A program made the translations under genes and the position numbers. Of a stretch of 64,000 bases of DNA, positions 29,452-61,194 are shown one piece after another (the first letter of the stretch is position 1; each line of letters begins with the position of its first letter). The notes beneath the pieces are model-generated. The model searched no databases, had not been told where the DNA came from, and worked only from the letters and a program-made list of their open reading frames with translations. This DNA is from an uncultured Holophagales bacterium (GTDB lineage Bacteria; Acidobacteriota; Thermoanaerobaculia; Multivoradales; UBA5704), in the NCBI GenBank assembly GCA_963842525.1, contig CAWJGT010000009.1, positions 544,001 through 608,000 on the forward strand, written 5' to 3'.

Positions 29452-30018
29452 TCAGGGACCGGCGAGCCGGAGCTTTTGCACGATCTCGGCCAGGCGGGGG
29501 GCGTTGCGATCCTTGTCGTTGAGGACCGGGTCCTGCACGGGCCACGCGATCCCGATCTCCGGATCGTTCCAGACGATGGCGATCTCGTCGTCGCGGTCGT
29601 AGGGCTTCGTGCACTTGTACTGCACGTGCGCCGTGGCGGAGAGGACGCAGAAGCCGTGGGCGTAGCCGGGCGGGATGTAGAGCTGGTGGAAGTTCTCGCC
29701 CGACAGGACCGCGCCCACCCACCGGCCGAAGGTCGGCGACTCCGGACGGATGTCGACCGCCACGTCGAAGATCTCTCCCAGGATCACCCGCACGAGCTTG
29801 CCCTGCGGCTGCCGGAGCTGGGCATGGAGCCCGCGCAGGATCCGGCCGGCGGAGAAGGAGTGGTTGTCCTGGACGAAGGGATCGGGGATGCCGCCGGCCT
29901 GGTACTTCTCCTGGTGGTAGGTCTCCAGGAAGAACCCGCGGGTGTCGGGCCACACAACCGGCTTGACGAGGACGACCCCGTCGAGGCCCAGGCGCTCGAA
30001 TTCAATCTCTCGTCTCAT
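29452..30018 (-). CDS. rfbC: dTDP-4-dehydrorhamnose 3,5-epimerase
   Basis: [25 protein letters not shown] and GYAHGF. Confidence 0.9.
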
Positions 30019-30022
30019 CGGG

Positions 30023-31104
30023 TCAGCTCCGGACCAGCCCGAGACGCTCACGCCCGTAGCGGCCCGCCTGCACGGCTTCGCACCAGGCGCGGTTGGCGAG
30101 GTACCAGCGCACGGTCGCGCGCAGGCCCGCGGCGAAGTCGTACCGCGGCTCCCAGCCGAGCTCGGTCCGCGCCTTGGTGTCGTCGATGGCATAGCGCCGG
30201 TCGTGGCCAGGCCGGTCGGCGACGAAGGTCTTGAGGTCCTTGTAGGAGGAGATCCCGCTGCAGGGCGCGCCGCAGGGTGCTCCTGGTCGAGGACCTCGCA
30301 GAGGGTGTCGACGAGCTGGAGGTTGGTCTTCTCGCTCCGCCCGCCGAGGTTGTACTTCTCGCCCGGCCGGCCCCGCTGCAGGACGGCGAGGACGCCGCGG
30401 CAGTGGTCCTCGACGTAAATCCAGTCGCGGACGTTGCCGCCGTCGCCGTAGATGGGCAGCGGTTTGCCTTCCAGGGCATTGAGCGTCATCAGGGGGATCA
30501 GCTTCTCGGGAAACTGGTAGGGGCCGTAGTTGTTCGAGCAGTTGGTGATCAGGACCGGCAGCCCGTAGGTCTCGTGCCAGGCGCGCGCCAGGTGGTCGGC
30601 GCCGGCCTTGGAGGCCGCGTACGGCGAATTCGGTGCGTACGGCGTGGTCTCCTGGAAGGCGCCGGTCGGCCCCAGGCTGCCGTAGACCTCGTCGGTCGAC
30701 ACGTGCAGGAAGCGGAAGCCGGCCCGCTCGTGCTCTGCCAGTCCCGCGAGGTACCGGCGCGCCGCCTCGAGCAGCTCGAAGGTGCCGACGATGTTCGTCT
30801 GGACGAAGGCGCCCGCGTCCTCGATCGAGCGGTCGACGTGGCTCTCGGCGGCGAAGTTGACGACCGCCGTGGGGCGGTGCTCGGCAAAGAGCCGCCGGAC
30901 CAGCTCGCGGTCCGCGATGTCGCCCTGGACGAACGCCAAGCGCGGGCTGTCGAGCACGCCGGCCAGACTCTCCAGGCTCCCCGCGTAGGTCAGCTTGTCC
31001 AGCACGATGATTCGCGGGGCGCGGGCGCCGGTCTCGGACAGGAGGAGCCGTACGAAGTTGCAGCCGATGAATCCGGCGCCGCCGGTGACCAGAAGGGTTT
31101 CCAT
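30023..31104 (-). CDS. rfbB: dTDP-glucose 4,6-dehydratase (frameshift ~30270)
   Basis: [26 protein letters not shown] and YAASK; C-terminus [12 protein letters not shown] in the alternate frame. Confidence 0.92.
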
Positions 31105-31142
31105 GGGCGGGGAAGTATATCGGACGTATACAATCCGCGCCC

Positions 31143-31972
31143 ATGATGCCGCAACCTTTGAGCCCCCTCCAGGCGATCGTGCTCGCCGTTGTCCAGGGGG
31201 TGACCGAGTTCCTCCCCGTCAGCTCCTCGGGGCACCTGATCCTGGTCCCCTATTTCCTGCGCTGGCCCGACCAGGGGCTGACCTTTGACATCGCCACCCA
31301 CACGGGGACGCTGCTGGCGATCCTGGCCTACTTCCGCCGCGACGTGCGCGACCTGGTCGTCGGCTTCTTCACCGGGCAGCCGCGCTCGGGCGACGGCGAC
31401 TTCTCGCCGCGCAGGCTCGCCTGGGCCATCCTCCTCGCCACGATTCCCGCCGGACTCGCCGGCCTGTTGTTCAAGGACTGGATCTCCACCCAGGCGCGCA
31501 GCCCGTTGCTGATCGCCGGTACGACGATCTTCTACGCGCTGGTGATGGCGGCGGCGGACCGCATGGGCCGGCAAGAGCGGAGCATCGGCGACATCGGCTG
31601 GGCATCGGCCCTGCTGATCGGCACGGCCCAGGCTCTCGCCCTCGTGCCGGGCACCTCGCGCTCGGGGATCACCATCGCCGCCGCCCTCTTCCTGGGGTTC
31701 GCCCGGCCTGCGGCGGCGCGCTTCTCGTTCCTCATGATCATCCCCATCAGCGTGCTGGTGGCAGCGATGGACGCAAAGGATCTGATCGAGGAGGGGGTGA
31801 CAACGGCGAGCTCGTGCCCATGGCCATCGGCCTGGCCGTCTCGGCGGTGGTGGGGTACCTGGTGATCGCCTGGCTCCTCGCCTGGCTGCGTCGGCAGCGC
31901 CTCACGGTGTTCGTGGTCTACCGGCTCCTGCTGGGGGCCGTCATCCTGGCGACGGTGCTCTTCCGAGGCTAG
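31143..31972 (+). CDS. uppP: undecaprenyl-diphosphate phosphatase (frameshift ~31810)
   Basis: [15 protein letters not shown] and PGTSRSG; C-terminus ..FVVYRLLLG in the shifted frame. Confidence 0.9.
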
Positions 31973-32006
31973 TTGCGAATTTCTTCACTTTCCTCTCGGC
32001 AGGTTA

Positions 32007-32035
32007 TTGACAAGTGACGATGGGAGGGCTAGGCT
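32007..32035 (+). promoter_or_regulatory. sigma70-type promoter
   Basis: TTGACA-N17-TAGGCT. Confidence 0.7.
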
Positions 32036-32040
32036 CCCGA

Positions 32041-32107
32041 ATTGCGGGGAGGTGTAGACCTCCTCTCATCCCTCCAAAAAGGAGCGCACGAGCGCTCCTC
32101 TTTTTTT
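32041..32107 (+). ncRNA. candidate ~67-nt small RNA
   Basis: Near-consensus promoter, hairpin GGGGAGGT-GTAG-ACCTCCTC, unpaired TCATCCCTCC and a terminator, with no ORF. Confidence 0.55.
32076..32107. terminator. intrinsic terminator, probably bidirectional
   Basis: AAAAA-GGAGCGC-ACGA-GCGCTCC-TCTTTTTTT. Confidence 0.85.
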
Positions 32108-32161
32108 GGGGTGAGACCGCCGCGGTGGCGGGGGCCGGGGCTCCTGCATGTCCGCGCGTCC

Positions 32162-32484
32162 CCGCGGTGGCGCTTACCGGTCCCGCGGGATCGCCTCGAG
32201 CCGCCGCGAGCAGCGTCGCTGGTGCCGCGATGGCGCTTGTCGGTCCCGCGGGAACGCTTCGCGTCGCCGCGAGCAGCGTCGCTGGTCCCGCGGTGGAGCC
32301 TGCCGGTGCCGCGGGACCGCTTCGAGTCGCCGCGAGCAGCGTCACTGGTGCCGCGGTGGCGCTTGCCGGTGCCGCGGGACCGGTTCGAGTCGCCGCGAGC
32401 AGCGTCGTTGGTCCCGCGGTGGAGCCTGCCGGTGCCGCGGGACCGGTTCGCGTCGCCGCGAGCAGCGTCACTGGTCCCGCGGGA
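32162..32484. repeat. five 63-bp tandem repeats, each built from three 21-bp CCGCG-starting subunits
   Basis: Units start at 32162, 32225, 32288, 32351, 32414 and (partial) 32477. Confidence 0.9.
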
Positions 32485-32488
32485 CGGC

Positions 32489-32725
32489 TCAGACTTCCGT
32501 GTACACGAGATACTCCGGCATGCGGTCCAGGTCGAGGCGCAGCAACTCGCGCCGCTGGGTCTCCGGGGCGTCCTCCGGCTCCTCCAACTTGAGCCAGGTC
32601 GCGAACCAGCGCCCGTGCTGATAGAAGATCTCCAGCCCCGCCTCTTCCGGCGTGTAGGGCGGCACCCAGACCTCCGGCTGAACGGCCCGCGGATCGTGCG
32701 GCCGGGCGGTGAAGTTGTCCCGCAC
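32489..32725 (-). CDS. small hypothetical protein (78 aa)
   Basis: Coding-like composition; TAAAAT 6 nt before the GTG. Confidence 0.6.
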   Translation of the reverse strand: MRDNFTARPHDPRAVQPEVWVPPYTPEEAGLEIFYQHGRWFATWLKLEEPEDAPETQRRELLRLDLDRMPEYLVYTEV

Positions 32726-32734
32726 GACAAGATT

Positions 32735-33033
32735 TTAGAGGACTTCCCGGGTCGCCTCGTCAGGGCCCCTCGGCAGCCGCTCTGCCCTGTTGCCGGGCTC
32801 ATAGCTCGCCAGATCTCGCAGGCTCCGGATGGCGGGCTCCAGACAGTCGATGAACAGGCACCCCAGGACGGCGCGGACCTCGGTCGGGAAGTCCGGATCC
32901 GTGTCGAGGTCGCGGTACCGGCCTTCCTGCGGTGTCACCGGCTGGCAGCGTTGGAGTTTCGCAGACTCTCGAGGCACGCCCCCAGGTCCCGGCACACGCA
33001 CTGCAGCCCTCTGCGGGTCTCGCCTTCGGTCAT
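32735..33033 (-). CDS. small hypothetical protein coupled to the TPR gene (frameshift ~32950)
   Basis: ATGA overlap with the TPR stop; MTEGETRRGLQCVCRDL... continues as ...DLDTDPDFPTEVRAVLGCLFIDCLEPAIRSLRDLASY in another frame. Confidence 0.5.
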
Positions 33034-34416
33034 GATGGAACCTCGCTGCCCTCGGCGCGATGGCGCCGGCCTGCGGATTCGGGCGGATCGTTGCAGCAGC
33101 GTATGGACAGGTCCCAGGCTGCCAGGCGGTCGCCGCTGAACCGGAACATCCGCCATAGAAACGAGGCGAGTTCTCTCTCGAGCCGTCTGAGGTCCTCTGG
33201 GGGGTCGGCCTTGCCGAGCCGGTGAAACACGCGGCGGGCGAGGGGCAGATCCTGCCGGCCTTCGAGAGCCGTCTCGAGCTTCTGCCTCCAGAAGCCTGAT
33301 CCCTTTTGTCTCCCCGGCCTTGATCAGCTCCAGTCCCAGATCGAGAGAGACCAGGATCGCCTCCGGCAGGAGCCCGTCGGCGAGCACTTGCCGGCGGACC
33401 GCGTCCAGCAGGGCGAGAGCCTCCGGATCGCCGAGGAGGGCGGCGGCTTTGGCTTCCATCCAGGCAATCCAGGACAGCTCGCGGGCATCCTGGGCCTGGG
33501 TCCGGCCCCGGAGGCAGCGGCTCTCCTCCAGCGTGCGCCGGGCCCGTCGCTCCTGTCCCAGATCGGCCTGGCACAGTGCCAGGGCGGCCTCTGCGCGCGC
33601 CGCGAGAGCCAGGCGGCGCTCTGTCGAGATCAGAACCCGGCCGCGCAGGAGCGGACCGGCGGCCCGCTCCGAGTCTCCCTGTTCCGTCAAGAGGAGGCCA
33701 AGCAGGAGGAGGGAGACCCCTTCCTCGTCGGAGAGCCCCTGGCTCGCGAACGATTCCGCGCTGCGGCGCAAGAGGGCGGCCGCCTCCTCCAGCCGTCCCC
33801 GTTGCCAGCGGAGCACTCCTTGAGCCTGGCAGAAGCGGGGCCGGTCGGAAGACTCGAAGGGCACCGTGAGATAAAAGGCCTCCTCGTTGAAACACATCTC
33901 CGCCGTGTCAGCGTCTCGCCGCAAGATCTGACGAGCCATGCCGGCGAGGTACCAGGCACGGCTCAACAGCATCGCGAGCACCCGTTGGTCCTGCCCGTCC
34001 GGGAGCCAGGCCCCGAGGTCGATCGCCAGGAGCGCGGCCTCTTCGGCCTGCTCGGGCGCTCTGGGCAACAGCTCCCGGCTCGCCTCCACCAGCAGGCCCA
34101 AGAGGTCCAGGCGGTGAAAGCGGGCCTCGCGAACCACCTCGGTGCGGCGCTTCGGCTTCAGGCGCAACAGCTCGCCGCGCAGCTCTTCGGCGTCCGGGCT
34201 GCCATGGTGCAGCCATTCGAGGACCTCGATCTCGAAGCTCTGCCCCTGGCACGGTGCCGGGACGACTCGTCGTCCCTCTGTCCGCTCCAGCAGCCGCACC
34301 AGCGCCTCATCGCGGCACTCCGCGCAGGAGAGCAGATGCAGGAACGCCGGCTGCCCTTCCGCAGGCAAGCCGGCGAGGAGCTGCTGTACTTCTTTCTCAT
34401 ACGAGGGGTTTCTCAT
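33030..34416 (-). CDS. zinc-finger (HxxxCxxC) plus TPR-like helical repeat protein (frameshift ~33260)
   Basis: HLLSCAEC near the N-terminus; Ala/Leu helical repeats; C-terminus in ORF 33030..33230. Confidence 0.7.
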
Positions 34417-34561
34417 CTCACGGCCTCCCGTCCTCTCATCCGCCGCCAGCATAGGGGCGTCCCGGCCGGCCGGTGCCGGAGAAAGGCCGAAAGCCGCGAA
34501 TTGCGGCCCGAGTGGTCCTTTTTCCGCTCCCGGGTGACCGCGCGCCGCGAGGGTTATCCCC

Positions 34562-34592
34562 AGGTGTCACGCTTTTGCCCGGCTGGACACCT
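34562..34592. promoter_or_regulatory. inverted repeat, candidate operator between the divergent TPR genes
   Basis: AGGTGTC-N17-GACACCT. Confidence 0.4.
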
Positions 34593-34625
34593 CTTTCTAC
34601 CGGAAGCATTTCGAGGAGGACCGAA

Positions 34626-36089
34626 ATGGCGCGCAAGGAGACTCCGCCTCCGTTGGGTGCAGTGCTGCGGTTCCTGCGGTTCGGCTATGGCTGGAGCGAG
34701 GAGGAGCTGGCGGAAGCGCTCGGCGTCAGCCCGAGCCTGATCTCCCGCTACGAACGGAAGGGGCTCCGCCGCGAGCGCCTGGAGGAGCTGCTCGCCGTCA
34801 TGGACGTGCCGGTCGAGTCGATCGACGCGGCCCTCTTCGCCCTGGAGCTTGGCCGCCTGCCGGAAGGCTCGGGCTCGCCCGTGGACCCCACTCCGGCGCA
34901 GCGGCGGAGCATCCATCGGGCCGCTGCGGTGGCCGGCTGGAACGCCGCCAAGGCCACCCTTGCCCGGCTCACGGCGAACCTCCGGCGCATCCGCGCGGAC
35001 CGTGCCTGCCGCCGGGCCAGGGAGCTGGTCGAGGCTCTGAAGAAGATGGCGCCGCAGGAACGGCGGAAGGCGGTCGAGACCGAGCGGAAATACTGGAGCC
35101 CGATGGTGGCGGTGGAGCTGTGTGAAGAAAGTATCCGGGCCGCCGCCCACCAGGCGAAGCGGGCGTTGGAGCTGGCCGGCTTGGCGCTGCGTGTAGCCGA
35201 GTTCCTCCCCGTCGCCAAGGCGTTGCGCGAGCTCGTCCAGGGGTTCTGCTGGGCGTTCGTTGGCAACGCGCGGAGAGTCCAGGGCGACCTGCGTGGCGCG
35301 GAAGAGGCTTTCCTCCATTCCGACCGCCTGTGGGAAGCCGGCGGGCCTGCTGATCCGGAGCTGTTCGACGGCGCGCGCCTGCTTGATCTGAAGGCGTCGC
35401 TGCGCAGCTATCAAGGCCGTCTCCAAGAGGCCGTCGTCCTTCTCGATCAGGCTTTCACAGGAAGCCAGTCAGAGGGAAGCAGGGCGCGGATCCTGGTCAA
35501 GAAAGCGATCGCCCTGAGGTTCCTGGGAGCCTACGAGCGGGCCCTCGCAGTGACTCGGCAGGCGGAGTCCCTGATCGACCGGAGCGAGGACCCTCGATTC
35601 CCCTGGCTCGTCCAGTTCAATCGGACGATCAATCTTTGGCATCTGGAACGGCACCCGGAAGCTGCAGAGCTGATGCCAGGAGTATGGGAGTCGGTGGCCG
35701 ATCTGGGCAACGAGCTCGACCTTCAGCGATCTCTCTGGCTGGACGCGAGGGTCAAGAGCGGACTGGGGAAGGACCAGGAGGCTCTGCCCGCTCTTGAGCA
35801 GGTGCAGCGTTACTTCACCGTCAAGCAGATCGCCTACGACGCGGCCCTGGCCAGCCTGGAAGTTTCGGAGCTATTGCTGGAGCAGGGGCGCACGGCCGAG
35901 GTCAGGGTGCTCGCCGAACAGATGTACTGGATCTTCAAGAACCAGCAGGTCCAGGAGGAAGCCCTCAGGGCACTGGGGGTTTTCTGCGAGGCGGCCCGGC
36001 AGGAAACCGCGACGGTCGGCCTGACGCGACAGGTCCGCGATTTCCTCCTCCGGGCGCAACATGACCCCAGGCTCCGGTTCGAGCCGTGA
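34626..36089 (+). CDS. XRE-HTH plus TPR transcriptional regulator (RRNPP-like architecture)
   Basis: GAGGAGG RBS; HTH LRFGYGWSEEELAEALGVSPSLISRYE; TPR-like GNARRVQGDLRGAEEAF. Confidence 0.85.
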   Translation: MARKETPPPLGAVLRFLRFGYGWSEEELAEALGVSPSLISRYERKGLRRERLEELLAVMDVPVESIDAALFALELGRLPEGSGSPVDPTPAQRRSIHRAAAVAGWNAAKATLARLTANLRRIRADRACRRARELVEALKKMAPQERRKAVETERKYWSPMVAVELCEESIRAAAHQAKRALELAGLALRVAEFLPVAKALRELVQGFCWAFVGNARRVQGDLRGAEEAFLHSDRLWEAGGPADPELFDGARLLDLKASLRSYQGRLQEAVVLLDQAFTGSQSEGSRARILVKKAIALRFLGAYERALAVTRQAESLIDRSEDPRFPWLVQFNRTINLWHLERHPEAAELMPGVWESVADLGNELDLQRSLWLDARVKSGLGKDQEALPALEQVQRYFTVKQIAYDAALASLEVSELLLEQGRTAEVRVLAEQMYWIFKNQQVQEEALRALGVFCEAARQETATVGLTRQVRDFLLRAQHDPRLRFEP

Positions 36090-36136: not shown

Positions 36137-36460
36137 CTATCCAATGCAACGGCCGTTCGGGTCGGCCTCGCAGCCGTTGTCGCTCGTTGTGGCTGTACCC
36201 TGGCCTGCCAGGCAGTGGCCGTCCGGGTCAGCGCTGCAGCCGTTGTCGCCCGTTGCGGCTGCGCCCTGGCTCACCAGGCAACGGCCGCTGGGGTCGACCT
36301 CGCAGCCGTTGTCGCTCCAGAGACCGGTCAGCAGACTCCAGAGGCTGACAAGGAGGCCCGGGCGAGGCTCGGCTCCGGCCGCGGGTGCAGCCGAAAGGAC
36401 AGGTACCGCGAGGGTGGCGGCAAGGACGAAGACGAGGGCAAGTCGGACCAGACGAGGCAT
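36137..36460 (-). CDS. secreted peptide precursor with three DNGCxxDPxGxC cores
   Basis: AAAAGGAG RBS; signal peptide; 66-bp repeats encoding DNGCEVDPSGRC, DNGCSADPDGHC and DNGCEADPNGRC. Confidence 0.8.
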   Translation of the reverse strand: MPRLVRLALVFVLAATLAVPVLSAAPAAGAEPRPGLLVSLWSLLTGLWSDNGCEVDPSGRCLVSQGAAATGDNGCSADPDGHCLAGQGTATTSDNGCEADPNGRCIG

Positions 36461-36600: not shown

Positions 36601-37422
36601 ATGGCGAGACCAGGAGACCCGGCCGACCTGAGGCTGATCGTGATCTTCCTCCGCTCGCTGCGGAAGTGGACCCAGGAGAAGCTCCATGAGGAGTCCGGCG
36701 TCGACCGGGGGCTGATCTCCGACTATGAGCTGGGGGAGAAGGCGCCGACGCGCAGGACCCTCGAACGGCTGACCGTGGCGGTCGGACTGCCGTATTCCTT
36801 TGTCGAGCGGTTGCTGCCGGTCTTCCGGGAGGCCCGCCGCGCCATGGAAACCCGGCCGGCCGGCCGGGGCACGGCGGCGCCTGAAGCGCCCGCGAGCCTG
36901 GAGGAAGACCTGGGCAAGGCGATCCTCGACGCCGTGCTCCCAAGTCTGACGCACCATCTAATGGAGCTCGAGATCCTGGTGAACGGGGCGGATGACGACG
37001 AGGCGGCGCAGAGGCCCGAGGACCGCCTCGTGGCGGTGGAGCTGTGGGCGGGCCTGAAGGACCGCACGCCGCGCGACCGGCGACGGGCCCTCGAAGCCGA
37101 CCGGAAATACTGGACCTGGGCGGTCGCAGAGCGGCTGGCCCTGGAAAGTGAGCTGGCTGCGGCCCACGAGGCCAGGCGGGCCCTGGAGCTGGCCCGCCGG
37201 GCCCTGCGCGTGGCCGAGCTCGCGCCCGGCACCCAGGCCTCCCGGAGCCGCACCCAGGGATTCTGCTGGGGGTTCCTGGCGAAAGCCCGGCGTGCCCTGG
37301 GAGACCTGCCCGGCGCCGAACAGGCCATCCTCGAATCCGACCGTCTATGGGAAGCCGGAGCCGCCGATCCGGGATTGCTCGACGGCGCGCGCTTGGCCGA
37401 CCTGAATTCGGCGTTGTCGTAA
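36601..37422 (+). CDS. XRE-HTH plus short/truncated TPR regulator, paralog of 34626..36089
   Basis: HTH WTQEKLHEESGVDRGLISDYE; shared segments RKYW, RALELA, QGFCW.F, GDL.GAE and SDRLWEAG..DP.L.DGARL.DL. Confidence 0.8.
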   Translation: MARPGDPADLRLIVIFLRSLRKWTQEKLHEESGVDRGLISDYELGEKAPTRRTLERLTVAVGLPYSFVERLLPVFREARRAMETRPAGRGTAAPEAPASLEEDLGKAILDAVLPSLTHHLMELEILVNGADDDEAAQRPEDRLVAVELWAGLKDRTPRDRRRALEADRKYWTWAVAERLALESELAAAHEARRALELARRALRVAELAPGTQASRSRTQGFCWGFLAKARRALGDLPGAEQAILESDRLWEAGAADPGLLDGARLADLNSALS

Positions 37423-38126: not shown

Positions 38127-38729
38127 ATGAAGACCGATGCCGAGCTGGTGGCGAGCGCGCTCAAGGGCTCGCAGGAGGCGTTCCGCGAGCTCGTGGTGCG
38201 CTTCGAGCGCCCGGTCTACAGCCTGGTGGTGCGCATGGTCCAGGACCCGGGCTTGGCCGAGGACCTGGCCCAGGAGGTCTTTTTCAAGGCCTACCGCCGG
38301 CTCGACACCTACGATCCAGTGCGCAAGTTCTCGAGCTGGCTGTTCAAGATCGCGCACAACACCACCATCGACCACCTGCGGCGGCATGCGCCGGAGACGG
38401 TCCCGCTGGAGCCGGACGGGAAGGGCGACGACCGCGGAAGCCTTGCCGCGGTGCTGGCGGACACCTCCACGGAGGACCCGTCGGCTGCGGCAGAGCGCCG
38501 GGACATGGCAAGATCCCTGGAGCGCGCGATCGCCCGCCTGCGGCCCGAATACCGGGAGCTGGTGGTGCTCTTCTATGTGGAAGGGGCTTCGTACCAGGAC
38601 CTGTGCGACGCCACCGGGCTGCCTCTCGGGACCGTGAAGACGAACCTCCACCGGGCGCGCAAGGAGCTCGCCCACGAGATGGCGGCCCAGGGATGGGGGC
38701 CAGAAACCCGGAGCGCGCCGGCCTCGTAA
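38127..38729 (+). CDS. ECF RNA polymerase sigma factor (SigW/RpoE-like)
   Basis: AEDLAQEVF, FSSWLFKIAHN and GTVKTNLHRAR. Confidence 0.92.
   Translation: MKTDAELVASALKGSQEAFRELVVRFERPVYSLVVRMVQDPGLAEDLAQEVFFKAYRRLDTYDPVRKFSSWLFKIAHNTTIDHLRRHAPETVPLEPDGKGDDRGSLAAVLADTSTEDPSAAAERRDMARSLERAIARLRPEYRELVVLFYVEGASYQDLCDATGLPLGTVKTNLHRARKELAHEMAAQGWGPETRSAPAS
38703..38729 (+). promoter_or_regulatory. ECF-type promoter inside the sigma gene 3' end
   Basis: GAAAC-N17-CGTAA ending at the sigma stop codon. Confidence 0.45.
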
Positions 38730-38754
38730 GGCGAGGCGAAGGAGAAAGAACCGA

Positions 38755-39297
38755 ATGCGTCCCTCTCAGCAAGACCTCCTGGCCCGCTGGCTCGCCGCCG
38801 AGCGGGACGACCGCGCGGACGAAGCCGAGGCCGCGCTGCTCGCCCTGTTCGAGGAGCTGCCGCGTCCGGCGCCGCTGCCCGGGTTTGCCGACCGGGTCCT
38901 GGCGCGGACGGGTCTGGGGTTCATCGCAGCGCCGGTCCAGAGGAGCCTGTTCGCATCCCGCTGGCGACGTGTCGTGCTCGCGCTCGCCCTGGTGGCGACC
39001 GGCCTGTCGCTGTTCTGGCTGCCGGCGACCCTGACCGCACTGGCGGGCCTGTGGAGCTTCGGCGATCTCATCCAGCTCTCGACGGCCCTCTTCGCGAGCG
39101 CTGCCGAGGGCTTTGCCGAGCTCGCCGCCTTCGGGGACTGGCTGCTGACGCTGGGAATCTCTCTGGCGAGCCTGCTCGCGACGCCCACTGTGGCCGGGAT
39201 CATGATCGTCTGCCTCGTGGTGTCGACAGTTGCGTTCCGCTTTCTCCGCGACCTCATCACACGAGAGAGGAGTTGGATCCATGTGGAACCTATCTGA
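38755..39297 (+). CDS. putative membrane anti-sigma factor
   Basis: P.PGFADRVLAR motif plus TM helices, directly after the ECF gene. Confidence 0.65.
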   Translation: MRPSQQDLLARWLAAERDDRADEAEAALLALFEELPRPAPLPGFADRVLARTGLGFIAAPVQRSLFASRWRRVVLALALVATGLSLFWLPATLTALAGLWSFGDLIQLSTALFASAAEGFAELAAFGDWLLTLGISLASLLATPTVAGIMIVCLVVSTVAFRFLRDLITRERSWIHVEPI

Positions 39298-53429: not shown

Positions 53430-53756
53430 ATGGATGTCGCACAGCCGGTACCGCCGGTCCCCGAGCGTGGCAGGAGGGCCACGCGGATCCTGCTGATCGT
53501 CGCCACGGTCCTCTACGGCCTGTCGCTGGTGCCCGCCGCCTTCATGGTCATGATGTCGCCGATGATGTTCGACGCGGGCCCTTCGCCCGAGGTGTGGACG
53601 ATGTTCGGCCTCGTCGTCGGCTATCCGGTGCTGGTGCTCGTGACGATCGTGCTGGGGTGGGTGCTCTTCGCCTACAAGAAATACCGCGCGGCGCTGATCG
53701 TGAGCCTGCTGCCGATCCTGGAGGTCGTGGCCGGCGTGATCGTCATGATGCTGTGA
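53430..53756 (+). CDS. small 3-TM membrane protein
   Basis: Hydrophobic; SPMMFDA motif. Confidence 0.65.
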   Translation: MDVAQPVPPVPERGRRATRILLIVATVLYGLSLVPAAFMVMMSPMMFDAGPSPEVWTMFGLVVGYPVLVLVTIVLGWVLFAYKKYRAALIVSLLPILEVVAGVIVMML

Positions 53757-56195
53757 GGCTAGGCGTCGGACTTGCGAGTCCGGCCAGCTCAGCCAGCTCC
53801 CGCAAGACCGCAACCTGGGCGGTGGTGAACGACTTTTCACCACGGTGAATGGCTTCTATCTCTTTCAGGGCCTCCGCTCTTTCGGCAGGATCGTGGCGGG
53901 CAGAAAACAAGCGAGCCCACAGAAACTCTGCCTCGCGGCAGGCTTTCCTGCGATCGTCGACCAGTTGGTCCCGCACGTTGAGCCCGAAGATGTCAAGACA
54001 GGCCTGGCCGCGCGAGGTGCGATGGCCCATCAGACCCGTCTTCGTATCGACCACCAGATGGTGGCTCGGATCGTCGGCCTCCTGGTCGCTTAGCGGATTG
54101 ATCAGCAGAGGCTTTTCCTCTGCCACTTCTTCGGGCCGCTGAGCATGGCGGCCCTCGACCGGAAAGCGGCTGTGCTTCCCGATCCTACGCCCCTGGCGGA
54201 CGTCGTCCTGGTTGCATTTGACGCACGTCGGCAGCAGATTCGTCCACTCATAGGCCAGCCAGTAGTAGCCCGGATGCTTCACGGGCTCGCCGTCGGCGTC
54301 GATCTGGACCTGCCCCTGCTCGTCGAGCAGCTCCGGATCGGCGGAGGTCGTCATCTCACGCAGGGTCTTGCCGACCGCGGCTTCCACTTCCTGCTCGAAC
54401 GGCCGCTCGCCGGAACGCAGGCTCTGGTCGAGCCGTTCCGACAGGCGATCGAGCTCGGCGTCCTCTTCTGGCGTGCGGTCGGCTTTGCCGCGCAGCTCGG
54501 CGAAGCGGTCGAGGTCACTGACCGAGCCCAGGCTGCGGCTGGTGGGAAGGCCGAAGGCCTCGGAGGCGAGCACCTGGTCGGCACGCAGGCCGGCCAGCTC
54601 CTGCCGATCGATGATCACCAGCTCCGGCGGCCCGTCGAGCTGGGCCTTGAGGCGGCACACCAGGGCATCCTCGAAGTCGGCCGACGCCGCAGCCAGGAGC
54701 GGCGTGTGGGTGGTGGCGAAGATCTGCGTCGCGGGGAACTGCCGGCGCAGGCGGTCGACGATGTGGCGCTGCCAGACGGGGTGCAGGTGCTGCTCCAGCT
54801 CGTCGATCAGCAGGATGCCACCCAGCTCGCGGCCGCTGTTGAAGCGCCCCGCATAGACGCCCCAACCGATGAAGTCGAGCACCCATTGCATGGTGCTGCG
54901 ATAGCCGTCCGACAGGACCCGCAGTGCCTGGCGGCCCCAGGGGCCGTCGATGACGGGGCCGGTCTTAGGATACGTGACCTCGTAGCCCGGAGCGTCGAGC
55001 ATAAGGATCTGCAGGACCTTGTGCTCGATCTCCTGCCGCAGGTCCGGGCTCTGACGCAACAGCACCAGCTCGGGATTCTGCAGCGACGCCTCGTCGTCGA
55101 AAAGAGTGCGTACCGCGTCACGGACGGTGTAAGTCTCGAATCCGGCGTGCGCCTGGCGACCACGGTTGGTGCCGTAGCCGCACACGAAGAGCTTGTTCCA
55201 AGGAAAGGGGTCTGGGGCGGTGTCCTTGCGCAGGGTCTCCCCACCGGTCGCCTCGTCGCGGGTGATCCGGGTGATGATCGACAGGTTGCGATCTTCCTCG
55301 GCATCGTGAAGCTCGATCCGGATCGTCCCGGAGCCGGCACCTTCCCGGACCATGCTGCCGGGTAGCTCGCGCATCAACGCGGCGGCGTCGCTCTCCTGGC
55401 ACAACCCCAGCGCAAGGCTGCGCAGCAAGGTCGACTTGCCGGCGGCGTTGTCGCCTAGGACGGTGATCCAGCCGGTCCCGTCGGCCACGGCGAGGTCCAG
55501 GCTCTCGAAGCAGCGGACGTTCTCGAGCACGAGGCGCTGGATGCGGAGCTGCCCACGCACAGGCTCGCTTGTCGGGGAAAAGTCTCGCAGCTCCGTTCCT
55601 GTTTTGCTTTGCTTCAGCCCGCAAAGCCCCCGTTCGGCTCGAATCAGAACTGGAGCCATTGATTCAGAAAAAAGATTTTCAAGACGTAGGACAACGATAC
55701 CATACTGAAAGGCGTATGGAACTTCCTTTGTCTGTCCGATCGCCTCGTAAAACGCGAGCGAAAACACGAAGGCGGCTTTATCGGAAATCTCTTTCTGTGT
55801 CCCGATTACGAACGGAATGTGCCGCGCGATCGCCTCCGCCTGATGCAGAGAGAAGCAACGATCTAAAAACACGCACTGAATGTGTTGTTTGAAGATCTCG
55901 AAGAAGGACTCCAGTGCTTCTGCGGTGACTAAGCGGGCTACACCATTATCGCCCCTTCAAGTACGATGCCGGCCTCCTCGCCATGTCCTGAAAAATGGAC
56001 GAAGTGAGGTTTGTACGACAGCATATGGCGACTGAGGTCCCTCGGGCGGACGGCCTCACGAATCTGCAGCTCGAACGGCATCATTGTCCGGCTCTCAAGG
56101 GCCTCCCTGATCCGGCGAGCTTCTTGGTCCAGGCGGAGTTTCGCCGTGTTCAAAGGATCAGCAGACAGCAGTAGAATGCGAACAAGTTTCCTCAT
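53743..56195 (-). CDS. CHAT domain plus ABC-type ATPase (PtuA-like) fused to the C-terminal half of an HNH nuclease (PtuB-like); frameshift ~55953
   Basis: CHAT motifs VHFSGHG and CVFLDRC; ATPase motifs GDNAAGKS, LSDGY, LIDELEQHLHP and TTHTP; HNH motifs YYWLAYEWTNLLPTCVKCN and LLINP. Confidence 0.75.
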
Positions 56196-56376: not shown

Positions 56377-56778
56377 TCAGGCCCAGAGGATCTCGATTTC
56401 GTAGGGCTCCAGGAGCCGGTCGTGAGTGACGAGGGCCAAGCCTTCTGCCTGCGCCTGTGCGACCAGCGTCCGATCGAAAGGGTCCCGGTGGTGGGGAGGA
56501 AGGGTGCCCGGCCCGCTCGGCGTGGGAGAACGTAATGAGGAGCTTCTCGAAACCGCTCGCGAGGACACCCGCCTCCATCGTGTCGGGGAAGCGAGACGGC
56601 CCAAGGAGGCCTTGATCGCAGCCTCCCAGGCCGAGGCCGCACTCACGAACACGATCTCTGCCGATGCGATCTTGTTTTGTACGTCGGCGGCCAACCGGGA
56701 GGGCTCGCCTCGCCACCAGAGAAAGACGTGGGTATCGAGGAGGAGCCGGGTTGAAGGTTCACCCACGCCCTCACTCAA
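56377..56778 (-). CDS. vapC: PIN-domain toxin (frameshifted)
   Basis: LLLDTHVFLWW, SAWEAAIK and HRDPFDR.LVAQA. Confidence 0.8.
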   Translation of the reverse strand: MSEGVGEPSTRLLLDTHVFLWWRGEPSRLAADVQNKIASAEIVFVSAASAWEAAIKASLGRLASPTRWRRVSSRAVSRSSSLRSPTPSGPGTLPPHHRDPFDRTLVAQAQAEGLALVTHDRLLEPYEIEILWA

Positions 56779-57007
56779 AGGCGGCCTGGATCTCCGGAGG
56801 CAGGGGAGCGTCGAAGTCTTCCGAGATGCGCATCCTGCCTTCCCACCCGCCAGGCCGGCGCGGCTCAGCAGGCCGATGGAACGGCACGAGCTTGGCGAGA
56901 GGCTTGCCCGCCTTGGACAGAATGATCTCCTCACCGCTCGCGGCGCGGTCGACGAGCCGCGAGAGAGAAGTCTTCGCCTCGTATAGGTTGTAGATGACCT
57001 CGGACAT
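56771..57007 (-). CDS. Phd/YefM family antitoxin
   Basis: NLYEAKTSLSRLV...GEEIILSKAGKPLAKLVP. Confidence 0.9.
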   Translation of the reverse strand: MSEVIYNLYEAKTSLSRLVDRAASGEEIILSKAGKPLAKLVPFHRPAEPRRPGGWEGRMRISEDFDAPLPPEIQAAFE

Positions 57008-57023
57008 CGGCGGGTTCTCCAGG

Positions 57024-57115: not shown

Positions 57116-57135
57116 GCACTGTATAGCCAGGGACG
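57116..57135 (+). promoter_or_regulatory. conserved motif upstream of DPxG peptide gene 2
   Basis: GCACTGTATAGCCAGGGACG, matching 36514-36533(-). Confidence 0.6.
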
Positions 57136-57194
57136 GTCCCTCCCTCCCGCGGTGGGAGACAGGAGCGGATGCCGTTCCAGACAAGGAGACCTCC

Positions 57195-57476
57195 TTGAGC
57201 CGCAGCGCTCGCCGTATCTCTGTCCTGCTTCTCCTTCTTCTCGCCGCAGCCGTGGCCGCTCCTCCTGCCTTTGCCGGCGGCGACGACAGCGCCCGGGCCG
57301 TGCGAGGGGTCCACAGCCTCTTCTCCTCCCTCCGGCAGACCCTGGGCGAGATCGTCGCCCGCTTCGCCCTGGAGTCCGCCAGTGACTCGGACGGCCGCTC
57401 GACCATCGACCCGAACGGCGCCACCGCGCCCGCTGGCGATCCTGACGGCCGCTCGACCCTCGACCCGGACGGCTAG
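57195..57476 (+). CDS. secreted peptide precursor with two DGRSTxDPxG cores
   Basis: AAGGAG RBS and TTG start; signal peptide ending AFA; 54-bp repeat; ends in DPDG-stop. Confidence 0.78.
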   Translation: MSRSARRISVLLLLLLAAAVAAPPAFAGGDDSARAVRGVHSLFSSLRQTLGEIVARFALESASDSDGRSTIDPNGATAPAGDPDGRSTLDPDG

Positions 57477-57504
57477 GCGGCCCCCGTTTCCTTTGTTGAC
57501 ATGT

Positions 57505-57532
57505 CCGCCGGTGCCGTACCGGCGGTCTTTTT
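57505..57532 (+). terminator. intrinsic terminator after the peptide gene
   Basis: CCGCCGGT-GCCGT-ACCGGCGG-TCTTTTT. Confidence 0.75.
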
Positions 57533-57599
57533 GTTCTCCCGAGACGCGCTTCTGAAGTACGATAGAGCGCACGGAAACAGGAATTGTGGGAGGACCACG

Positions 57600-58966
57600 A
57601 TGGCAGAGCGGCACATTCCGGAAGGTCTGTTCAGGCGGTTCTTGCGGCAGGAGACCTCTCGCGACGAGTCGCGCGAGATCGTGCGTCATCTCCTGACCGG
57701 ATGCCCGCAGTGCTCGGAGACGGGGTACCGGGTGGTCTCCGAGATCGGCCTGGTCGTACCCCCCGAGTCTCCGCAACCCGCGTGGGAAGAGGCGTACGAA
57801 GGCTCTTCTCCCGGGCGCTCGCCTTCTCCAGCGAGGAGGAGCGGCGGATCGCGTGGGAGAAGCTTCAGGGGTGGGCCCGCTGGATGGAGCTCGAGCCATT
57901 GAGCCCGCAGGAACGGCTCGTCCGGATGGAGTCCGACGTGCGTTTCCAGACTTACGGGCTCTACTCCCGGCTCCTCGAGGCGAGCCGCTGGTACAGCCGC
58001 ACTGATCCGGGCGAGGCGGTCGATATCGTCCGCCTCGCCGTCGTTGTGGCGGAGCGGCTCGATCCAAGCAGGATCGGACGGCAGCGCACCGCGGATCTCC
58101 AGGCTGCCGCCCGGGCAGAGCTCGGCAACGCCTGCCGGATCGCCGAGGACTTCGAAGGAGCCCGCCAGGCGTTCGATGAGGCCTGGCGCATCCTGGAGAC
58201 TGGAACGGGCGATCCGGCCGAGGAGGCCCATCTCATCAGCCTCGAAGCCTCGTACCTGAAGGACATTGGAGACTACGAGCTGGCCGAGGCTTCCCTGGCC
58301 GAGGCGCTCCGGATGTACCGGGCCATCGGAGACACCCACCACCAAGGCCGGGTGCTTCTCAAGATGGGCGAGGTCATCGGGCACGTCCAACCGGAGCAGG
58401 GCGTTGCTCACATCCAGAAAGCCCTGACCCTCCTGGATGCGGCGAGGGAGCCGAGGCTGGAGCTCTATGCACAGCATGACCTCGCCCAGTTCCTGAGCGA
58501 CAGCGGCCGGCCCGAGGAGGCGCTCGCCGTTCTTGAGCGCGCTCGTCCTCTCTACCAGCAGTTCCAGGAGGAGCCGGTCCAGCTTCGCCTGCACTGGCTC
58601 GAAGCCAAGATCGCCAGCCGCCTCGGTGACCTCGCTGAGGCCGAAAGCATCCTCGCGCAGCTCTGGGAGGAATTCCGCGTCCGCAACCTCTATCAGGAGG
58701 TGGTGCTCGTCACAATCGACCTGGCGCAGATCCTGACCCGCAAGGGGGAGTCGGCGCGCGCCGCGCAGCTCGCGTCCGAGTGCCACACGATCATGGCCGG
58801 CTGGGGCCTGCACCGGGATGCCCTCACCGCGTGGCTCGTCTTCTGCGACGCCCTGGCCCAGGACCGCGTCAAGATAGACCTCTTCGAGCGGCTCGGCGAC
58901 TACTTCCGCCGCCACCGGTTCCGGCCCGCTCCCTTCAGCACGGCGGATACCCCGCGGGAGGAATGA
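57600..58966 (+). CDS. zinc-finger (HLLTGCPQC) plus TPR protein (frameshift ~57800)
   Basis: GGAGGA RBS; zf-HC2-like N-terminus; ELGNACRIAEDFEGARQAF TPR segment similar to the 34626 protein. Confidence 0.8.
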
Positions 58967-59169: not shown

Positions 59170-59785
59170 ATCTCGACGGGCTTGGAGAGAATTGGGCGGG
59201 CTTTCGAGACGATTCTGGAGGCCTTGCGGAACAGTTCTGGAAGGATTCCGGACAGTTCTCCAGGGCTTCGGAAAAATTCTGGAGCCCTCCAGAAAAAATC
59301 CTAAGGGCTCCAAAAGTTTTTCCAGCCCTTCCGAGGAACTCTGAAGCCCTCCAAAACTTTTCTCCAGGACTTCGGAACGGTTCCGAAGGCTTCCGGAAGT
59401 TTTCTGGACGGCTCGAAAAAATTCTGGAAGGCTTCGGGACGGTTCTGGAGTCCTTCAGAACTTTTCTCCAAGGCTTCGGATCGGTTCCGAAGGCTTCCAG
59501 AAAGTTTCCGAACGGCTGGAAAAATTTCTGAAAGGCTTCCGGAAGGTTCCGAAGCTCTCCGGAACTCTTCTCCAAGGCTTCGGATCGGCTCCGAAGCCTT
59601 CCGGAAAACTTCTGGACGGCTGGAAAAACTTCTGGAAGGCTTCCGGGAGATTCTGAAGCCCTTCAGAATTCTTCTCCAGGGCTCCAGATCGGCTTCGAAG
59701 CCTTCCGGGAAACTTCTAGCCGGCTCGAAAAGTTTCCAGAAGGCTTCCGGAAGACTCTGAACCCCTTGAAACTTCTCCTCCAGCC
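59170..59785. repeat. intergenic degenerate array with 104-bp higher-order period and ~10.4/21-bp subperiod
   Basis: Equivalent positions 59262/59366/59470/59574/59678 and 59406/59510/59614/59718. Confidence 0.85.
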
Positions 59786-59828
59786 GTAAGGACTCGTCAC
59801 GAAGTAAGTGAACGTGGCGTTGTAGGCC

Positions 59829-61194
59829 CTACCTCACCCCCAGCTCTTCCGAGATAACGCCGGCCAGCTCGCCGGCAAGGGCTTCGATCCAGGCCTGGTC
59901 GGGGCCTTCGATCATGACGCGGGCGAGGGGCTCGGTGCCGCTGTAACGCAGGACGAGGCGGCCGTCCTCGCCCAATCTCTCCTCCACGGTGCGGGCTGTA
60001 GCGGCCACCCGGGGGACCTGGAAGAGGTCGGGCTTGCGGGCCACACGCACGTTCTGCAGCACCTGGGGGTAGCGGCGGAAGCCGGCGAGGAGCTCCGAGA
60101 GGGGTCGCCCGGCCCGGCGGACGAGCCAGGCCATCTGCAGCGCGGTTAGCAGGCCGTCGCCCGTGCTCGCGAGGCCGCTCTGCACGATGTGGCCCGACTG
60201 CTCGCCGCCCAGGAGGATGCCCTCCCTGCTGCATGGCCTCGACCACGTAGCGGTCGCCCACGCCGCAACGCTCGATCCCGATCCCCTCGCGGGCAAGCGC
60301 CCGTTCCAGGCCCAGATTGCTCATCGTGGTCGCCACAATGCGCGGCGGCACGAGCGCGCCGCGGTCGCGCAGGAAGATCGCCCAGAGGTAGAGGATGGCG
60401 TCGCCGTCCCGCACCTCGCCCCGCTCGTCGGCCAGGATGCAGCGGTCGGCGTCGCCGTCGAAGGCGGCGCCGAGGGCCGCCCCCTCGGCCACCACCCGGT
60501 CCGCCATGTCCCCGGGAGCGGTCGAGCCGCAACCGTCGTTGACGTTGCGGCCGTTGGGCGCGGCATGGAGGAGCGTCACGGCGGCGCCGAGCCGCTCGAA
60601 CAGCTCGCCGGCGTAGGACGAGGCGGCGCCGTTGCCGGCGTCGAGGACGATCTTCAGGCCGGCGAGCGGCCGGTCGCCCGGCACGGTGGCGGCCAGATGG
60701 CGCAGATAGAGCTCGCGCAGCCCGGCCTCGACCGGCAGGTCCCCGTTCCAGGGCTCGACGTCCATGGAAGGCTTGGCTTCGAGGCGGCGCTCCAGGGCGG
60801 CTTCGTCCTCCTCGCTCCACTTGGATCCCTGCGGATCGATCAGCTTGATCCCGTTGTCCGGATGGGGGTTGTGGCTCGCCGACACCACGGCGCCGCAAGC
60901 GGCGTCCAGCTCGCGGGCCAGGAAGGCGACCCCCGGCGTGGGGATGACCCCGGCGTGGCGGACGCGCGCGCCGCCCGCGGCCAGGCCTTCGGCGAGCCAA
61001 CGGCAGATCTCGGGCGTGCTCTCCCGGGTGTCGCCGCCCAGGACCACCACCGGTGCGTTCCCGGCCTTCTCCTGCAGCGTGGCCGCGAGGTGGGAGGCGA
61101 GGGCTGTCACGGTGGCGCGGTCGAGGGGCGGCTCGCCGGCCCGTCCGCGGACGCCGTCGGTTCCGAAGAGATGTCGCGTCGGGCTCGAGGTCAC
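59829..61194 (-). CDS. glmM: phosphoglucosamine mutase (frameshift ~60225)
   Basis: FGTDGVRG, SASHNP, FDGDADR, GGEQSGH and RYSGTEP. Confidence 0.93.

Follow-up and report, generated by a model that had tools for sequence, protein, structure and literature searches.

A small DPxG-core precursor gene and its probable TPR receptor with a zinc anti-sigma-like head: one pair of a large, coded family in Thermoanaerobaculia

The window that we analysed is a stretch of 64,000 nucleotides from an uncultured Holophagales bacterium (assembly GCA_963842525.1, contig CAWJGT010000009.1, positions 544,001 to 608,000), and all coordinates without a further label refer to it. At 57-59 kb it contains a small gene followed on the same strand by a gene for a TPR protein. 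The small gene (57195..57476, +) is an ORF of 93 codons plus stop with a TTG start, preceded by an AAGGAG ribosome-binding site (57183..57188, +). Its translation includes the cores DGRSTIDPNG (57390..57419, +) and DGRSTLDPDG (57444..57473, +), the latter being encoded by the last codons. The N-terminus starts out basic, continues with a hydrophobic stretch (the highest Kyte-Doolittle mean over 19 residues is 2.38, beginning at residue 8) and ends in AFA, by which a heuristic call predicts a Sec signal (residues 1-27); residues 38-58 are amphipathic, with a moment of 1.45 that was equalled by 0.45% of 2000 shuffles. Within 42 aligned precursors A27, D72, P73, G75, D90, P91 and G93 are invariant. 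The initial annotation had listed the start codon, the ribosome-binding site, the two cores, a terminator, a signal peptide and an amphipathic helix for this gene, and all of these were confirmed, the signal peptide as a heuristic call on the hydrophobic N-terminus.

The gap between precursor and receptor gene measures 123 nt here and contains an intrinsic-terminator-like hairpin with a T-run (57505..57535, +; stem 57505-57525, fold z -3.1), a pattern that is retained in 31 of 34 dereplicated orthologous loci. It is followed by a -10-like TACGAT (57558) and a GGAGGA ribosome site (57589), together spanning 57558..57594 (+), which suggest that the receptor has a putative promoter of its own; a TAnnAT-like box before the receptor was scored in 15 of the 34 loci. 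About 75 nt 5' of the precursor start we found a conserved GCACTGTA box (57116..57123, +), a candidate promoter element. A looser CACT form of the box lies about 75 nt 5' of the precursor in 31 of the 34 dereplicated loci, and [GA]CAC[TC] occurs at -90..-55 before 31 of the genome's 53 precursors, against 105 of 937 genes taken as controls. The precursor leader is also predicted to form a GC-rich hairpin (57130..57178, +; z -2.8), and over the 53 precursors the mean z of this element is -1.9, with 23 below -2. A sigma-70 scan recovered no + strand promoter at the locus. The CAC[TC] box and the GC-rich leader hairpin (e.g. 57116-57178) are common to the precursors of both receptor classes that are distinguished below, and they may serve as the promoter that the family sigma recognises or as an RNA element with a regulatory role.

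The second gene consists of a ZAS-like head (57600..57801, +; ATG at 57600) that contains the string HLLTGCPQC and the predicted ligands H5, H30, C35 and C38, and of a TPR body of 387 aa (57803..58966, +) that, on the basis of Pfam TPR matches and the fold model of an ortholog, is predicted to form a superhelix and to lack a membrane helix. The HLLTGCPQC zinc-finger-TPR gene described in the initial annotation is thus recognisable in both its head and its TPR part, but the two lie in different frames: one base is absent near 57801, and the resulting one-base gap (57800..57803, +) splits head from body in the assembly. The frameshift is present in the sequence and 22 of 76 strong receptor loci in the assembly are split across frames, so that the family could be real and this copy's receptor a true pseudogene, a question that is independent of the mechanism. 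We consider this improbable: close relatives are in frame at the very same base, as contigs of two studies have an inserted base behind 57801 and four orthologs carry one more base at the head/body junction, and single-copy genes nearby are broken in the same way. The sole glmM homolog of the genome, 1.3 kb from the receptor, is split inside domain III, and rmlB is split as well. Based on these relatives and on the two other split genes, the break near 57801 is probably an assembly error. More generally, glmM (59797-61194) and rmlB/rmlC (29452-31144, -) are split or fused by frameshifts that point to assembly indel errors.

The intact orthologs of the receptor measure 444-451 aa and contain Pfam TPR_12 in 21 of 21 cases; the ortholog model has a pLDDT of 88.5. 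The four ligand residues of the head are invariant in 103 full-length homologs, most of which belong to this sigma-less clade, and their His-Cys spacing is mostly H-x4-C, as compared to the class I motif His/Cys...His-x3-Cys-x2-Cys. The top PDB sequence matches of the head profile are ChrR (E 4e-4), DdvA (1.5e-3) and RslA (2e-3). When the head model was compared to structures, the scores were weak and the ranks consistent: with VIA the top four were anti-sigma complexes (RsiW, MucA, RslA and a SigK partner; Z 5.7-4.8) and with Foldseek the top six rows were RsiW or ChrR (E about 1-2). The zf-HC2 HMM, proposed earlier as a check, gave weak matches in 5 of 22 heads (best E 0.007) and none for this head. 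For the TPR body the fold matches were APPBP2 (Z 23.8), LGN (21.8), Rap phi105 (20.7) and NprR (20.0), and the highest query TM-score among the fold matches listed, 0.52, was that of RapJ-CSF. By sequence the receptor is only weakly similar to RapH/F/J (E 0.002-0.006), no RRNPP model matched it in Pfam or NCBIfam, and searches of the same two collections yielded no catalytic domain. The ESM Atlas matches were TPR clusters from Acidobacteriota, all of them unnamed or generic. The earlier suggestion of an anti-sigma-like or Rap-like factor can therefore be narrowed: the anti-sigma-like part is the better supported one (head profile, fold ranks and the sigma linkage treated below) and the Rap-like part the weaker one.

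The genome (9.95 Mb, 34 contigs) contains many more such genes. The TPR body matches 113 ORFs at E<1e-5 and a family HMM identifies 101 receptor loci at >=100 bits. The DPxG motif was defined on the window only and matches 66 ORFs of the genome. For 41 of them a receptor is no more than 1.4 kb away (2.2 expected), and of the 43 ORFs in which the motif stands at most 15 residues before the stop, 37 are near a receptor (1.5 expected). Within the window the five motif matches are precisely the five cores, in two precursors, from which the motif had been proposed. Chance occurrence of the motif in unrelated contexts had been named as a refuting outcome; instead the motif is concentrated near receptors and nine scrambled or re-spaced control motifs are not, with 0-5 of 20-47 ORFs in that position. 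A wider core pattern recovers 65 precursors near receptors in the genome. The signal-peptide heuristic is passed by 48 of the 56 precursors with a good start, and a lipobox is found in none of the 56. Among five distant motif ORFs that were inspected, four are precursor-like and adjoin the end of a contig or broken receptors. Identical precursors were observed at different contig ends (C18:1445-5371 and C9:2489-5557; C18:43198 and C19:527193; the ends of C8 and C10), which suggests assembly overlaps and hence slightly inflated copy counts. What had been presented as a second copy accordingly belongs to a set of about 60 precursors that accompany about 100 TPR paralogs, and the idea of a real, diversified family extends far beyond two copies, to 101 receptor loci and 66 motif ORFs.

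Receptors were recovered from 20 of the 21 relative genomes searched (own genome counted) and from 26 of 151 genomes of the class; at E 1e-25 they are confined to the class in a search of 201 phylum genomes, and the homolog records name Thermoanaerobaculia or Acidobacteriota. In the orthologous clade, defined as loci at >=55% identity with enough flank and with duplicates kept in, a precursor is found at 64 of 67 loci (53 by the strict pattern, 11 more by inspection). Cores of the type xGRxT[ILV]DP adjoin 8 of 12 receptors at >=64% identity and 4 of 49 below that. The precursor-receptor family is real, and a literature search, which covered few subscription journals, returned no description of it.

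Besides the precursor no neighbour is conserved over 75 orthologous loci. Here, a Phd/YefM antitoxin and PIN toxin pair (56377-57010, -) is divergent from the precursor, and a Septu-like gene, a single ORF in which a PtuA ATPase part is joined to a PtuB-like nuclease part (53743-56195, -), is preceded by a short CHAT-like ORF, with frames that may reflect assembly indels. One contig of run X1 places the Phd/PIN region downstream of a receptor end instead. Just 3' of the receptor lies a 104-bp tandem repeat of 4.3 copies (59340-59783), and other low-complexity repeat arrays flank some of the orthologous loci (e.g. L059 and L074). The variable neighbourhoods, and the toxin-antitoxin pair and Septu-like gene that adjoin this copy, would suit a defence or kin-recognition module without a density signal, in which the peptide is an antidote or identity tag and the TPR protein a sensor or toxin; the ZAS-TPR-CHAT anti-sigma DdvA is described as controlling a defence island (PMC11506125). 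The receptor nevertheless lacks a catalytic domain, its PADLOC TPR match is marginal (E 9e-4) and the neighbours are not conserved, which makes this reading very unlikely. Still more remote is a RiPP pathway in which the precursor would be the substrate and the TPR protein would serve as scaffold for its maturation. It would accommodate the multi-core layout and a weak NCBIfam match to HaaT (24 bits versus a cut-off of 1125), but a conserved modifying enzyme is absent near the 75 orthologous loci, the signal peptide occupies the position of a leader, and the receptor heads are regulatory (HTH or ZAS).

Those heads divide the 101 loci into 27 with an HTH, 41 with a ZAS-like head and 33 unclassified. 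The HTH receptors have a precursor at 25 of 27 loci, always on the opposite strand, and 26 of 26 of their precursor links involve C-x-x-DPxG-x-C cores. For the ZAS receptors a precursor was found at 27 of 41 loci, without exception on the receptor's own strand and upstream of it, and bracketed cores are absent from this class. The contrast between Cys-containing and Cys-free cores, taken in the initial annotation as locus-specific, is therefore genuine, although tied to receptor class and gene layout rather than just to the locus. A quick tree was built from 79 receptors, with the sigma-linked homologs of another order as its root, and in it the 14 HTH receptors form one branch (SH-aLRT 99; two unclassified rows included) inside the ZAS set; judged by this placement, the HTH receptors with Cys-bracketed cores are a derived class.

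The other precursor of the window (36137..36460, -) has three Cys-bracketed cores and belongs to the HTH class. It is convergent with an XRE-HTH-TPR receptor gene (34473..36089, +; likely start near 34626) and divergent from an XRE-HTH gene with truncated TPR (36601..37422, +). Next to these lies a diverged ZAS-TPR paralog (32935..34452, -), with no precursor found adjoining. The TPR body at 57-59 kb matches the XRE-TPR of the 33-37 kb locus at E 7e-18 and the 32935-34452 gene scores 109 bits on the family HMM, so that the kinship claimed earlier holds but is distant: the 33-37 kb locus represents the HTH class and the 57-59 kb locus the ZAS class, and the two are distant paralogs. A repetitive GC-rich array with units in several frames (32004-32600) separates the 31.1-31.9 kb gene from the 33 kb ZAS-TPR gene. 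At 2 kb from the HTH-class locus a membrane-protein gene follows that of an ordinary ECF sigma (38127-39297, +), which gave no match to the family sigma model.

Covariation of cores with receptors had been put forward as a check, its absence being a refuting outcome, and it was found, down to one residue pair. In a mutual-information scan of 62 clade pairs (84 pairs reduced at 90% identity) receptor column 298 (L002 numbering) and core position 4 rank first, with z 8.8. All 36 of these discovery pairs with Trp or Tyr at column 298 have Gly-4, versus 2 of the 26 with other residues there; Leu, Gln and His go mostly with Ala or Ser-4, Lys with Asp (2/2), and the Gly-298 receptors all with a Trp-4 core (3/3). 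In the present copy the column corresponds to Gln229 of the TPR body (58487..58489, +), paired with a Ser at position 4, and the Gln-298 receptors of the clade, this copy and three relatives, have a Ser-4 core in 4 of 4 cases. The Trp/Tyr coding was picked after the discovery table and then tried on 73 held-out pairs, 44 from 80 newly fetched loci and 29 from paralogs of this genome, from which rows >=90% identical to any other row were excluded; split or short receptors are absent from the trees and the covariation. Gly-4 accompanies Trp/Tyr-298 in 11 of 14 held-out pairs versus 3 of 59 for the remainder, and the volume correlation of -0.54 (p 8e-7) is the most negative, rank 1 of 338 columns; each of the two subsets passes the rule separately. 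Independent contrasts on a FastTree tree of all 135 pairs, discovery pairs included, gave 14.1 in the same direction and 0 opposite (p about 1e-4), and the next best of 255 columns nets 5.3. Gly-298 is accompanied by Trp or Met-4 in 11 of 13 pairs (contrasts 6:0, p 0.03). A first binary coding of the column (L/T/S/V/A versus the rest) had not been significant in contrasts on the 62 pairs (median p 0.25).

Two further candidates were rejected: N330 accompanies Met-6 in 10 of 10 pairs, yet with 2 independent contrasts only this is not significant, and columns 327 and 367, strongly associated with core position 2 in the clade, gave no clear pattern in the held-out pairs. In the ortholog model column 298 is on helix 286-302, predicted to be a groove helix, one turn from the conserved H294, and N178, R181, R331 and W334 occupy every second helix, the counterparts of TPR helix A. 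In TPR proteins it is this helix that lines the groove, and in RRNPP receptors a conserved Asn contacts the peptide backbone. N178 is kept in 132 of 135 receptors, R181 in 134 and W334 in 124. Covarying columns fall on A helices in 18 of 30 cases for the clade (p 0.01), and the enrichment weakens to 14 of 30 for the 29 paralogs and 13 of 30 when pooled. Complex predictions of the TPR body with precursor residues 62-93 scored 0.02, 0.38 and 0.02 against a mark of 0.32 and count neither way. Similarity of whole receptors and of cores is modestly correlated (Mantel rho 0.22, p 0.001), a signal that co-inheritance alone could explain. Shared ancestry by itself would not readily produce size compensation again and again at a single residue pair, for which reason direct contact is the best reading, and on these sequence patterns the DPxG core very probably binds its cognate TPR protein.

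In 18 low-copy genomes with 20 receptor loci a sigma gene is directly upstream at 16 and absent at 3, while 1 locus is truncated by a contig end, and the family sigmas pass the ECF cut-off. In this genome ECF sigma genes overlap the starts of two ZAS-TPR genes on contig C34, and several unlinked sigmas of the family clade are present. Of the 47 proteins with a sigma-2 region in this genome, those of the family clade are on C34, C25, C10, C23 and C3. A precursor lies 5' of the sigma at L010, L022, L025, L180 and L187, and no precursor is evident at ten loci of the other order. At G000:C34:43286-47855 and at L010, L019, L022, L024, L025, L094 and L170 we observed a conserved cluster in which ZAS-TPR genes accompany two or three ECF sigmas and small secreted ORFs; among the latter, one ends in a DDNG core variant. 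At L182, L183 and L100 secreted-looking small ORFs 5' of the sigma have the same signal and amphipathic layout and no DPxG core. The likely history, the direction of which depends on the root, is that sigma and ZAS-TPR came first and the peptide next, followed by an expansion with frequent loss of the sigma.

An anti-sigma output of the family is moderately supported. A search for the family sigma clade found no member beside this copy or the 75 orthologous loci, and a full sigma is within the fetched flank of only 5 of the 82 receptors of the 80 further loci; the present copy would thus have to regulate a sigma in trans, and for this copy we put an output via an ECF sigma at an even chance. 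The sigma-less copies might instead sense the peptide with a head that has a target other than sigma, or act as a peptide sink or decoy. No sigma accompanies the clade, remnants with sigma-2 only, between precursor and receptor at five loci of the genome, indicate that the sigma partner decays, and 33 of the 101 receptor loci have no recognisable head, some being fragments. We nonetheless regard such a function as quite unlikely, since the four predicted zinc ligands are invariant in the 103 homologs, which are mostly from this sigma-less clade, and since several sigmas of the family clade occur unlinked in the genome.

The reading that we slightly favour overall is that of a predicted exported precursor whose cores settle in the TPR groove and switch a zinc head that holds an ECF sigma. 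The small gene would give rise to a Sec-exported precursor with DPxG cores, which would be cut into a peptide of about 10 residues and be re-imported via a peptide permease. Inside, the core would probably bind in the groove of the cytoplasmic TPR protein that the adjacent gene encodes, and would thereby switch the anti-sigma-like zinc head of this protein. The head probably keeps bound an ECF sigma that is encoded elsewhere and that this sigma-less copy would contact in trans; the peptide would either release or tighten the sigma. That the signal goes out and back in is, in our judgement, reasonably likely. Import routes in the genome include one Opp/Dpp-like operon, one POT and OPT genes; no dedicated protease or importer gene is linked to the pair, and two genes for family-5 peptide-binding proteins at 2-4 kb from receptors, considered as candidates, have no linked permease in their surroundings and were set aside.

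The return of the peptide must cross the outer membrane, which counts against this mechanism. The binding may then be real and the signal intracellular, with the receptor reading an unexported precursor or a fragment returned from the periplasm, as a monitor of envelope or secretion. The outer membrane would hinder return between cells, ECF sigmas often serve in envelope stress, and the conserved amphipathic helix of the precursor could hold it at the membrane. A generic monitor would, however, not need dozens of distinct core-receptor specificities per genome, and the tandem cores resemble duplicated Phr pheromones (PMC11343458); we therefore deem an intracellular signal unlikely.

Should the export-and-return reading be true, a single genome would contain dozens of coded channels that run through ECF sigma factors. 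This would be a new route of signalling and also a rich natural collection of orthogonal peptide-receptor pairs. Owing to the residue code the idea can be tested directly, as one receptor substitution should switch the core that is bound. More speculatively, and with rather less confidence, Thermoanaerobaculia may have a peptide language of their own: an ECF anti-sigma with TPR sensor would have gained an exported DPxG peptide, expanded to about 100 knob-and-hole-coded channels per genome and undergone one head swap to HTH with disulfide-looped peptides, yielding cell-to-cell signalling in a diderm independent of RRNPP. Peptide signalling through cytoplasmic TPR receptors is attributed to Bacillota and their mobile elements in PMC10075063 and PMC9765709, and our literature search found no quorum-sensing system of Thermoanaerobaculia.

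The system closest in layout is RRNPP(A) (Rap-Phr, NprR-NprX, PlcR-PapR, AimR-AimP), which the pair resembles in several respects. A small propeptide, here with a predicted Sec-type signal, adjoins a TPR protein that is cytoplasmic and measures 250-500 aa; the cores are repeated within the propeptide and stand at its C-terminus; the output head varies; and the TPR fold matches. Repeated cores have a precedent in Phr propeptides (PMC11343458). The layout used by RRNPP_detector (PMC10075063) consists of a propeptide of 10-100 aa, a Sec signal, a receptor of 250-500 aa with TPRs and adjacent genes; the 93-aa propeptide, the receptor length, the TPRs and the adjacency agree with this layout, and a Sec signal is predicted by a heuristic. 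The host is from Thermoanaerobaculia and not from the Bacillota, or their mobile elements, to which PMC9765709 and PMC10075063 assign RRNPP. The precursor is upstream and behind its own terminator, the cores are 10-residue DPxG units, and the head is ZAS-like in place of a three-helix phosphatase module or HTH. With the different host and without clear homology, the pair would work like RRNPP and is not filed as a member. Neither does common descent follow, given the weak sequence likeness to Rap, and the fold likeness is not unique, since two eukaryotic proteins, APPBP2 and LGN, score higher than Rap and NprR.

The best NCBIfam match of the TPR body is to the NsdA-family TPR-like regulators of Streptomyces (44 bits, below the 75-bit cut-off). 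TPR modules are tied to ECF control in the C-terminal extension of ECF42 and the FecR-like anti-sigma of ECF267 (PMC7826278), neither of which is described there as a soluble ZAS-TPR protein with a peptide gene. DdvA combines a membrane helix with a periplasmic TPR-CHAT part (PMC11506125). From the class I ZAS anti-sigmas (ChrR, RslA, RsiW, DdvA) the receptor differs in having as sensor a soluble TPR superhelix with a partner peptide gene, in a His-to-first-Cys spacing that is longer by one residue and, for this copy, in the lack of a co-encoded sigma. ChrR itself carries a cupin. The likeness to this class consists of a predicted N-terminal helical bundle, putative His-His-Cys-Cys ligands that align to those of ChrR, a predicted soluble protein like ChrR and, in the low-copy genomes, a receptor gene directly behind that of an ECF sigma.
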